From contig JACPCP010000016.1 in assembly GCA_016179745.1 (NCBI GenBank), positions 10,819 to 74,818 of the forward strand: a stretch of 64,000 nt of DNA, given 5' to 3'. Below, one piece after another: positions 12,526 to 34,998 of the stretch (position 1 is the first letter of the stretch; every line of letters starts with the position of its first letter). The notes beneath the pieces are model-generated. The model made no database searches, was not told where the DNA came from, and worked only from the letters and a program-made list of their open reading frames with translations. The position numbers and the translations under genes are program-made. Origin of the DNA: Candidatus Omnitrophota bacterium. GTDB taxonomy: Bacteria; Omnitrophota; Omnitrophia; Omnitrophales; JACQLI01.

Positions 12526-12598
12526 GCCGGCGTAGCTCAGTTGGTAGAGCAGGGGACTCATAAGCCCCGCGTCGGGGGTTCGATTCCCTCCGCCGGCA
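12526..12598 (+). tRNA. tRNA with CAU anticodon (elongator Met most likely; Ile2-lysidine not excluded)
   Basis: 73-nt cloverleaf: GCCGGCG acceptor, CTCATAA anticodon loop, T-arm GGGGG-TTCGATT-CCCTC. CCA is not encoded. An A31/G39 mismatch is noted. Confidence 0.85.
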
Positions 12599-12621
12599 CT
12601 GTATTCTTTTAAGAAATAATT

Positions 12622-12741
12622 GAGAGGAATCGAAGGGAGCCCCGCACAATGCGACGTCAAGGAGCATTGGGTTTGCGGGGCGGGGGGCCGACCTGGAGCG
12701 AGCGTTAGCGAGCGAAAGGCGCCGATTCCCTCCGCCGGCAC
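12622..12741 (+). repeat. tRNA-3'-end-linked structured repeat, copy A (antisense T-arm segment, 97-nt core, and a 19-nt copy of the tRNA-Met 3' end)
   Basis: Core 12626-12722 is 95/97 identical to 34820-34916. CGATTCCCTCCGCCGGCAC occurs at both 12581-12599 and 12723-12741. Confidence 0.75.
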
Positions 12742-34645: not shown

Positions 34646-34727
34646 AAAAGGTGCTCATTATAAGGTGTGGCAGAAAAGTTGCCAGATAAAATTTAAATTT
34701 AGTATACTCCCAACGTCTTTCCAGCCT

Positions 34728-34798
34728 GCGGCTGTTGCATAGTGGTAATGCCCGAGCCTTCCAAGCTCGAGTCGAGGGTTCGATTCCCTCCAGCCGCT
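34728..34798 (+). tRNA. tRNA-Gly (UCC)
   Basis: 71-nt cloverleaf: GCGGCTG acceptor, anticodon loop CTTCCAA, T-arm GAGGG-TTCGATT-CCCTC. Confidence 0.9.
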
Positions 34799-34815
34799 AA
34801 TTCCTGATCTGGACT

Positions 34816-34934
34816 GGAGGGAATCGAAGGGAGCCCCGCACAATGCGACGTGAAGGAGCATTGGGTCTGCGGGGCGGGGGGCCGACCTGGAGCGAGCGTT
34901 AGCGAGCGAAAGGCGCCGATTCCCTCCAGCCGCT
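34816..34934 (+). repeat. tRNA-3'-end-linked structured repeat, copy B (13-nt antisense T-arm segment, 97-nt core, and an 18-nt copy of the tRNA-Gly 3' end)
   Basis: GGAGGGAATCGAA (34816-34828) is the exact reverse complement of the tRNA's TTCGATTCCCTCC. CGATTCCCTCCAGCCGCT occurs at both 34781-34798 and 34917-34934. Confidence 0.75.
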
Positions 34935-34970
34935 CATTCTTTTTCAGCCGAGCGGGGACTCAAAAAGGGC

Positions 34971-34998
34971 TTGACATCCAAAAAAGCATCTGTAGAAT
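34971..34998 (+). promoter_or_regulatory. Sigma-70-like promoter for tRNA-Thr and tuf (TTGACA, 16 nt, TAGAAT)
   Basis: -35 at 34971-34976 and -10 at 34993-34998, about 130 nt upstream of tRNA-Thr(GGU). Confidence 0.45.

Follow-up and report, generated by a model that had tools for sequence, protein, structure and literature searches.

Mobile elements that enter the 3' ends of tRNA genes include the genomic islands and prophages moved by tyrosine integrases and their gene-less derivatives, the cis-mobilizable elements (CIMEs), and the concept of gene-less elements flanked by attachment (att) sites has been put forward as well (PMC5704250). We analyzed a stretch of 64,000 nucleotides (nt) from a Candidatus Omnitrophota bacterium (referred to as the window; all coordinates are window positions), in which a gene-less inserted unit of 136 to 142 nt with a constant core of about 97 nt stands behind the gene for tRNA-Gly(UCC) (copy B) and again behind a tRNA(CAU) gene (copy A). 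With islands and CIMEs, the unit shares the insertion at the tRNA 3' end, the intact tRNA, a repeat running from the T-loop to the 3' end, and an orphan copy of this repeat downstream; it differs from them in its size, the lack of genes, a variable left junction, a covarying hairpin, and in that no integrase was recognized nearby. As in CIMEs, the flanking repeats derive from the 3' part of the tRNA (18 to 19 nt in the window; 35 nt, 33 of them identical, in L006, a locus of the sister species), but the element does not supply a tRNA copy with one 3' end per lineage.

Casposons likewise target the ends of tRNA genes, use the T-psi-C landmark, and leave a true target duplication that stems from staggered nicks (PMC5137440). 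They are kilobases long, carry terminal inverted repeats, encode Cas1 and PolB, and generate a fixed duplication of 14 to 15 bp that lies mostly downstream of the tRNA, whereas the unit studied here has neither terminal inverted repeats nor genes, its duplication comprises 18 nt or more and, where it is 18 nt long, lies wholly inside the tRNA, and no Cas1 was found in the window, where it was looked for. Bacterial miniature transposable elements with inverted repeats (MITEs; Correia, RUP, BOX, and REP-derived elements) are of the same size class and are also non-coding, folded, multi-copy, and polymorphic among strains. MITEs own their terminal inverted repeats and make a short fixed duplication. 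In the unit studied here, duplicated target provides the right arm of the terminal stem, at least 18 nt are duplicated (18, 19, and 35 nt), and a single position of tRNA genes is used. Group II introns also contain a segment complementary to the target that spans the insertion point; compared with them, the unit is five to twenty times smaller, lacks intron domains and an Rfam match, leaves a duplication, and does not interrupt the gene. Insertion sequences (IS) of the IS200/IS605 and IS91/Helitron types, integron cassettes, and CTX-type elements make no duplication or share a core of at most 7 nt and bring their own ends, whereas here an 18-nt host-specific duplication stands at two different tRNAs. 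Eukaryotic short interspersed elements (SINEs) and retrotransposons without long terminal repeats are similar in being short and non-coding, in depending on an enzyme supplied in trans, in their conserved precise 3' junction, variable 5' junction, and target duplication, and in transcription from a tRNA unit; the precise 3' junction (3/3 complete copies), the variable 5' junction (four different leaders), and a host-specific target duplication were all found here. The unit differs from SINEs in that it is bacterial, has no A-tail and no internal promoter, and is strictly specific for its tRNA site, and we know of no SINE-like mechanism documented in bacteria outside group II introns. The element resembles known bacterial classes (MITEs, att-type islets, casposons, and HUH elements) in parts but fits none of them: its anatomy combines a host-specific 18-nt duplication at two tRNA landmarks with a target-complementary segment, one invariant end, and one variable end. 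It matches no described family and has so far been seen in no more than two closely related Omnitrophota species.

The inserted units and their flanking repeats

Copy B is probably an insertion of a small, non-coding, non-autonomous mobile element that targets tRNA genes with the T-arm sequence TTCGATTCC, and we are highly confident of the more general statement that a mobile insertion with target duplication took place. The target gene, tRNA-Gly(UCC) (34728..34798, 68.1 bits; plus strand, as are all features of both copies), is intact, and its T-loop and T-stem read TTCGATTCCCTCC. By sequence match, the first copy of the repeat CGATTCCCTCCAGCCGCT lies within the functional tRNA, from C56 to the discriminator N73 (34781..34798). 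The second one is an orphan copy of C56 to N73 (34917..34934), which serves as the terminal stem's right arm and runs directly into the native tRNA-Gly trailer with the T-run CATTCTTTTTC (34935..34945), where the empty allele of L021 has CGTTCTTTTTC. An earlier note on this DNA had pointed out both occurrences; they are the only ones in the window, and none of 100 shuffles of the sequence gave a match.

Between the two repeats lie a 15-nt spacer, an inverted copy of the T-arm, and a G+C-rich core. The spacer (34799..34813) is a variable leader, AATTCCTGATCTGGA, in whose place the alignment of insertions has another sequence in every case. It is followed by a 15-nt anti-T-arm, CTGGAGGGAATCGAA (34814..34828; assigned by complementarity and fold), which forms the left arm of the terminal stem, by the purine junction GGGAG (34829..34833), invariant in the alignment, and by hairpin 1 (34834..34874; fold and covariation), with 13 pairs, the 11-nt loop GACGTGAAGGA, and a 4-nt bulge. 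The remaining 3' block, CGGGGGGCCGACCTGGAGCGAGCGTTAGCGAGCGAAAGGCGC (34875..34916), is the same in the aligned copies A, B, and L006, and folding predicts an irregular hairpin in it, interrupted by G/A internal loops. Within the block, AGCGAGCG occurs two times (34890-34911, arranged as AGCGAGCG-TT-AGCGAGCG, 10 nt from start to start). The pair admits two readings, one as an RNA hairpin in which G-A mismatches stand in tandem, the other as a pair of protein sites on the same face of duplex DNA. The inserted unit has no terminal inverted repeats: its two ends are unrelated, and what serves as right arm of the terminal stem is the tRNA segment duplicated at insertion.

In the anti-T-arm, GGAGGGAATCGAA (34816-34828) is indeed the exact reverse complement of TTCGATTCCCTCC, as had been noticed earlier. 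The complement was then taken to be 13 nt long and to form 11 bp with the downstream copy, and these lengths need correction: CTGGAGGGAATCGAA complements 15 nt of tRNA-Gly, TTCGATTCCCTCCAG, so that it reaches two bases into the tRNA-Gly-specific acceptor strand, and it forms 13 perfect bp with the downstream copy. It consists of a constant part, GGAATCGAA (34820-34828), and a 6-nt extension, CTGGAG (34814-34819), that fits tRNA-Gly. Beyond the nine constant nucleotides, complementarity to the local tRNA extends over 6 nt in copy B, 4 nt in L006, and 2 nt in L022, and over 0 nt in copy A, whose four bases are those of L006.

Copy A (12599..12741) follows the tRNA(CAU) gene (12526..12598) upstream of tilS; judging from its position beside tilS, this tRNA may be tRNA-Ile2. 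Copy A consists of N74 and a leader (12599-12621), the anti-T-arm GAGAGGAATCGAA (12622-12634), a core that extends to 12722, and the orphan repeat CGATTCCCTCCGCCGGCAC (12723-12741), which is the 3' end of tRNA(CAU) itself. The two copies (12626-12733 in A and 34820-34927 in B) are 98% identical across 108 nt, and their only two differences, in the hairpin loop (12658/34852) and in the bulge (12673/34867), both fall on unpaired positions, in agreement with the earlier note. The core is common to both sites, while both repeats are of the Met type at tRNA-Met and of the Gly type at tRNA-Gly, which bears out the proposal that the terminal copy is host-specific. In L006, the closest relative of the window (tilS DNA 90.4% identical), both repeats follow that strain's own tRNA-Met allele (CCTCTC/GCCGCCA). 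Conservative recombination between an element site and a tRNA gene leaves one repeat copy that is derived from the element and constant across its lineage. Since neither copy is constant between hosts, the 18-nt repeat must be duplicated target (C56 to N73), synthesized from the target at insertion, and not a sequence carried by the element.

The duplication always starts at C56 in the T-loop. Its end in the window is the discriminator N73, past which copy A has a single additional matching base (19 nt); in L006, the identity continues for 17 nt into the trailer (33/35 in total). At the right junction, the core end (GGCGC, within GCGAAAGGCGC) meets C56 (CGAT) in the same way in 3/3 complete copies. 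The left junction lies right after the discriminator in every insertion, and the leader that follows varies in length and sequence (12 to 27 nt, four leaders). Between the tRNA end and the constant GGAATCGAAGGGAGCCCC, it reads C TGTATTCTTTTAAGAAATAATTGAGA in copy A, AATTCCTGATCTGGACTGGAG in copy B, AAGTTCTCTTTTGAAAACCTGATGAGA in L006, and TTTGAAACTCAAG in L022. No origin of the leaders was found elsewhere in the window. The copy A leader resembles both that of L006 (16/27, p 0.002) and the trailer of the other tRNA-Met allele (type-2; L018; 14/23, p 0.004) and shows no likeness to its own trailer (6/23). For copy B, a likeness of four nucleotides to the trailer had been noted; the match, ATTC, is present, but the spacer agrees with its own flank in only 8/17 positions (p about 0.07), which is not significant alone. 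The 30 nt after each repeat copy of B (34799-34828 and 34935-34964), that is, leader plus anti-T-arm against native trailer, share 17/30 positions (shuffle p about 1.5e-4), including GGGAATCGAA versus GGGACTCAAA, and a wider comparison of flank and element around copy B gave no further likeness.

Empty and filled sites in relatives

Loci of relatives (L numbers) were gathered via TilS, encoded downstream of copy A, and GpmA, encoded upstream of copy B. Homologues of these two proteins also assign the window to Candidatus Omnitrophota, and the EF-Tu encoded in it is identical to NCBI MBI2167416.1. L021, L022, and L023 are 100% identical to one another in gpmA (606 nt), the intergenic region, and tRNA-Gly. 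L021 is empty: tRNA-Gly is directly followed by CGTTCTTTTTCTAGCC, which matches the window sequence past the terminal copy, CATTCTTTTTCAGCC. L022 and L023, from two other samples, are filled and continue after tRNA-Gly with TTTGAAACTCAAG and then the core start GGAATCGAAGGGAGCCCCGCACAATG, where the contigs stop. The site behind tRNA-Gly is also empty in L024/L026, L027, and L028, which are more distant relatives (GpmA 80 to 82% identical). The tRNA(CAU)-tilS site is filled in the window and in L006, which has the complete unit, and empty in L010, L018, L019, and L007/L008, where the trailer and tilS directly follow the tRNA. The DNA downstream of the orphan repeat corresponds to the trailer of the empty alleles.

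These comparisons answer the question raised earlier of whether orthologous tRNA-Gly loci lack the 136-nt unit: in L021, L024/L026, L027, and L028, spacer, core, and terminal copy are missing together. At orthologous sites, the three parts are present or absent as one unit, which speaks against their having arisen by unrelated events and shows that the repeated unit tied to tRNA 3' ends is a real entity. Copy B and L022 are two separate insertions at the same site of the same tRNA; their leaders are unrelated (AATTCCTGATCTGGA in the window and TTTGAAACTCA in L022/L023) though their first 28 core nucleotides are identical, and L021, with the flanks of L022, is empty. In total, four insertions (A, B, L006, and the L022/L023 type), three of them complete, were obtained from two species of one Omnitrophota clade.

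Several observations accompany these loci. The tRNA(CAU) gene upstream of tilS, compared in the window, L006, L007, L010, L018, and L019, occurs in two alleles: CCCTCC/GCCGGCA, whose trailer is short, and CCTCTC/GCCGCCA, whose trailer is long. Their distribution departs from the tilS tree, ((window,L006),(L010,L018)), which suggests recombination between lineages at the tRNA(CAU)-tilS locus. In L020 (1-2072, minus strand relative to gpmA; gpmA 99.3% identical), tRNA-Gly is followed by unrelated AT-richer DNA, ATAGCCTGTTTC, and a 66-amino-acid (aa) zinc-ribbon open reading frame (ORF) and a 222-aa membrane protein take the place of tRNA-Thr and tuf. Either the locus was rearranged or something else was inserted at this tRNA end; the contig contains no second copy of the repeat. 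Short-read contigs (L001-L004, L022, and L023) break inside the element at about window position 34849, near the A/B difference at 34852, which is how a repeat present in several copies should behave. Public assemblies therefore likely contain too few copies of the element, and scans with exact patterns may miss copies. It breaks short-read assemblies beside tRNA genes and ribosomal-protein operons.

Conserved structure and possible routes of insertion

The notion that selection acts on the structure was strengthened by the third complete copy, in L006. In the alignment of three sequences (A, B, and L006) used for covariation and conservation, 13/13 pairs of hairpin 1 are kept, of which five are changed on both sides in L006, and no pair is broken. 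No shuffle reached the covariation score, and sliding the partners by 1 to 3 columns left about 40% of them paired. Between the window and L006, nothing changed in the 5' 18 nt and in the 3' 50-nt stretch, i.e., the 42-nt block plus the adjoining stem and repeat bases. Given that 10/26 stem positions changed while the ends did not, the constraint is strong on sequence as well as on structure: the element is under selection for the hairpin, as the compensated changes show, and for an exact sequence in its 5' 18 nt and 3' 50 nt.

That a 13-bp stem covaries speaks for a working form that is single-stranded, and we consider a structured single-stranded intermediate rather likely. On the plus strand, purines prevail where bases are unpaired (AAGGGAG, GACGTGAAGGA, and the internal loops GGA/GAA and GA/GA), which favors plus-strand RNA; no G-U pairs are present that could decide the strand. 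All four insertions are co-oriented with the tRNA and lie inside its transcription unit. A promoter-like site upstream of tRNA-Gly (TTGCCA-18-TATACT, 34679..34708, recognized by consensus match alone), the orientation, and the native T-run behind the orphan repeat of copy B point to transcription of the element as a 3' trailer, so that copy B would be co-transcribed with its tRNA. RNase Z cuts precursors without CCA right after the discriminator. Of the window's six tRNA genes, five do not encode CCA, and the left junction of every insertion is the position right after the discriminator, the predicted RNase Z site. Target choice is narrow: only the window tRNAs with an exact TTCGATTCC are occupied (2/6); the unoccupied four each deviate from this sequence at one or two positions.

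On this basis, we propose a route in which the working form would be a folded single strand, most likely plus-strand RNA made as a tRNA 3' trailer. The RNase Z cut after N73 would free the element RNA precisely where the left junction lies. Pairing with the T-arm region of a new tRNA gene would then come from the constant anti-T-arm, whose complementarity to T54-C62 spans the right junction, from the 3' tail that resembles a tRNA, or from both, such that a T-arm complement of 9 to 15 nt would let the element RNA find other tRNA genes; this pairing would explain the restriction to tRNAs with TTCGATTCC. At a nick in the T-loop, an enzyme supplied in trans would begin to copy the element into the gene, with the invariant 3' block coming first; the 42 nt of this block, beside the 3' end, could serve as the recognition site. 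The element's 5' end would join variably at the end of the tRNA gene, and fill-in would duplicate C56 to N73, leaving the tRNA intact. For the target-matching extension of the anti-T-arm, conceivable origins are copying of the target, selection, and quasi-palindrome correction. Single-stranded copying is favored by the invariant 3' end with its 42-nt block, the variable 5' side, the target duplication, the covariation, and the co-orientation. Our best guess for the copying enzyme is a reverse transcriptase of the host or of a parasite, although the specific combination of RNA and reverse transcription remains tentative, and it is rather doubtful whether the element represents the first bacterial SINE-like retroposon, with a trailer RNA of about 120 nt copied into other tRNA genes. 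The anatomy is what retroposition would leave, and retroposition of non-intron RNA is undocumented in bacteria. If the proposed route is true, a gene-less element enters essential single-copy genes harmlessly, rebuilding the tRNA through the duplicated displaced part, and gains free, strong transcription from the tRNA promoter.

Several points weigh against an insertion of this kind or against parts of the route. Target-primed reverse transcription of non-intron RNA is not known from bacteria, and no reverse transcriptase, integrase, transposase, or Cas1 was recognized by eye among the window's 62 large ORFs, all of which look like core genes by the same inspection. The base is narrow, with four insertions in two species and three of them complete, and the presence/absence pattern could partly reflect precise loss through recombination between the repeats. 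The length of the duplication may vary and not be fixed at 18 nt, as the 35 nt of L006 indicate. Copy A fits its own tRNA poorly (anti-T-arm 11/13), and the resemblance of its left region to that of L006 implies that part of this region moves with the element and is not made at the junction. The AGCGAGCG pair, spaced by 10 nt, would equally fit binding by a protein to double-stranded DNA.

Among the alternatives, a miniature att-type islet is improbable; it would be a CIME-like 140-bp remnant with attL and attR moved by a tyrosine integrase in trans, with a crossover in the T-loop and a tRNA 3' end carried by the element to restore the gene. A direct repeat from the T-loop to the exact tRNA 3' end is indeed classic integrase anatomy, the 17 nt of identity into the L006 trailer look like many attP identity blocks, the two AGCGAGCG repeats 10 nt apart could be arm-type sites, and the copy A leader resembles a captured tRNA-Met trailer. 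Yet one lineage with 98% identical cores should carry one acceptor sequence, and the repeats are of the Met or Gly type according to host; the leaders of the two tRNA-Gly insertions are unrelated next to 28 identical core nucleotides, the compensatory changes in the 13-bp hairpin point to a single strand and not to a duplex binding site, a 140-bp double-stranded circle is mechanically awkward, and inspection of the window ORFs by eye revealed no integrase. A DNA transposon that makes 18-bp staggered nicks at the tRNA end (by a casposase/Cas1-type or other integrase), with the T-arm as landmark and subsequent gap fill-in, seems similarly improbable. There is a precedent in the Aciduliprofundum boonei casposon, whose site is the 3' end of tRNA-Pro and whose insertion duplicates 15 bp of target (PMC5137440), and here, too, both repeats are host DNA with boundaries at fixed tRNA landmarks. 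What does not fit is the absence of terminal inverted repeats, a left end with four leaders instead of a conserved terminus, repeats of 18, 19, and 35 nt instead of one fixed length, the lack of a Cas1 or transposase in the window as judged by eye, and the hairpin covariation, which such an enzyme would not need. These two are the main rivals of the proposed route, and each loses weight through the host-specific repeats or because the element has no defined ends. Other candidates were discarded because both repeats are host-specific: crossover by an integrase in the conservative manner, whether within the T-loop or at the end of the tRNA, insertion of the IS200/IS605 or IS91 type, integron- or CTX-type recombination of a folded single strand, and gene conversion between tRNA genes via the T-arm that they share. 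For copy A, homologous recombination that brought in a filled allele was considered and dropped because host and foreign sequence switch exactly at two homology-free junctions.

The earlier note had favored a switch affecting tRNA maturation, i.e., a cis-acting RNA device in the tRNA precursor whose anti-T-arm alternates between the T-arm and the downstream copy to control 3' maturation and which spread by its usefulness. The near-equal native and alternative folds of copy B (-97.2 and -100.0 kcal/mol, a gap of <3 kcal/mol), the co-orientation that would give co-transcription with the tRNA, and the conserved structure agree with such a device, which we nevertheless hold to be very unlikely. 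The closest relatives have an identical tRNA-Gly without the unit, so the tRNA does not need it, and the host-specific 18-nt duplication at two genes is left unexplained. The terminal stem formed by anti-T-arm and orphan repeat has 13 perfect pairs in copy B but 10/11 in L006, with a mismatch, and about 7 in copy A, in which the anti-T-arm is degraded (11/13) and the predicted fold does not use the stem. The footprint of an insertion, with its target duplication and terminal stem, accounts for the anatomy more simply than a switch does; a side effect on tRNA processing is possible according to the folding model. The accompanying suggestion that the element marks a site for a protein would be compatible with a mobile element recognized in trans. 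Even less credible is an origin without dedicated machinery, in which rare template switches or repair events copied one odd sequence via the shared T-arm. T-arm identity of 11 to 16 nt between donor and target would set the right junction as seen, and the variable left junction resembles microhomology joining, but at least three independent insertions of the 97-nt core in two species, one of them polymorphic among identical flanking genes, as well as purifying selection on 68 nt and compensated hairpin changes, are unexpected of a passive by-product.

Searches for further copies and genomic surroundings

To place the putative mobile element among known sequences, we searched several collections. 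The exact pattern GACCTGGAGCGAGCGTTAGC gave one chance match, in a coding region, among 185,579 species-representative genomes, and GTTAGCGAGCGAAAGGCG gave seven chance matches and nothing related in the JGI metagenomes; exact patterns found nothing in the IMG/VR viral contigs. blastn against phage and plasmid collections yielded no similar DNA, and a protein-database search with concatenated frame translations of the element (spurious ORFs over the copies) returned nothing. With filters off, the covariance model R1 detected no copies in the window besides A and B; outside the window, it detected L006 and the truncated copies in L001, L022, and L023. Look-ups at the window edges retrieved only short Logan contigs without tRNAs. 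No degenerate older copy was detected at significant similarity downstream of copy B or in the empty alleles, and two 2026 preprints on Omnitrophota mobile DNA describe nothing like this element.

When copies A, B, and L006 were compared with Rfam at the gathering threshold and at E<=10, only tRNA passed, and the best matches to other models, at 8 to 24 bits, fell far short of their thresholds. The permuted-tmRNA model RF04321 matched all three copies weakly (10.8 to 12.8 bits, compared with a gathering threshold of 47), at window positions 34773-34818 and 12574-12682 and at 29-151 of L006. These matches start at the tRNA T-arm and most likely reflect just the T-arm and acceptor end. A hammerhead, considered from CUGAUGA in the L006 leader, was dropped since the motif is not in copy A and gave no score.

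Copies A and B form 108-nt direct repeats flanking 22.2 kb of core genes (tilS, ftsH, folP, ruvCAB, and others), and recombination between them would loop out this 22.2-kb segment; paired copies thereby bracket tens of kilobases of core genes with 108-nt direct repeats. Chromosomal segments that include ribosomal-protein operons have been described as "episomal" copies in Omnitrophota, with the mechanism unresolved (10.64898/2026.05.20.726742, 10.64898/2026.06.07.730766). On its downstream side, copy B is followed, 37 nt past the orphan repeat, by a near-consensus promoter (TTGACA-16-TAGAAT, 11/12; 34971-34998) that serves tRNA-Thr(GGU)-tuf, and the copy lies between two strong transcription units, touching neither.

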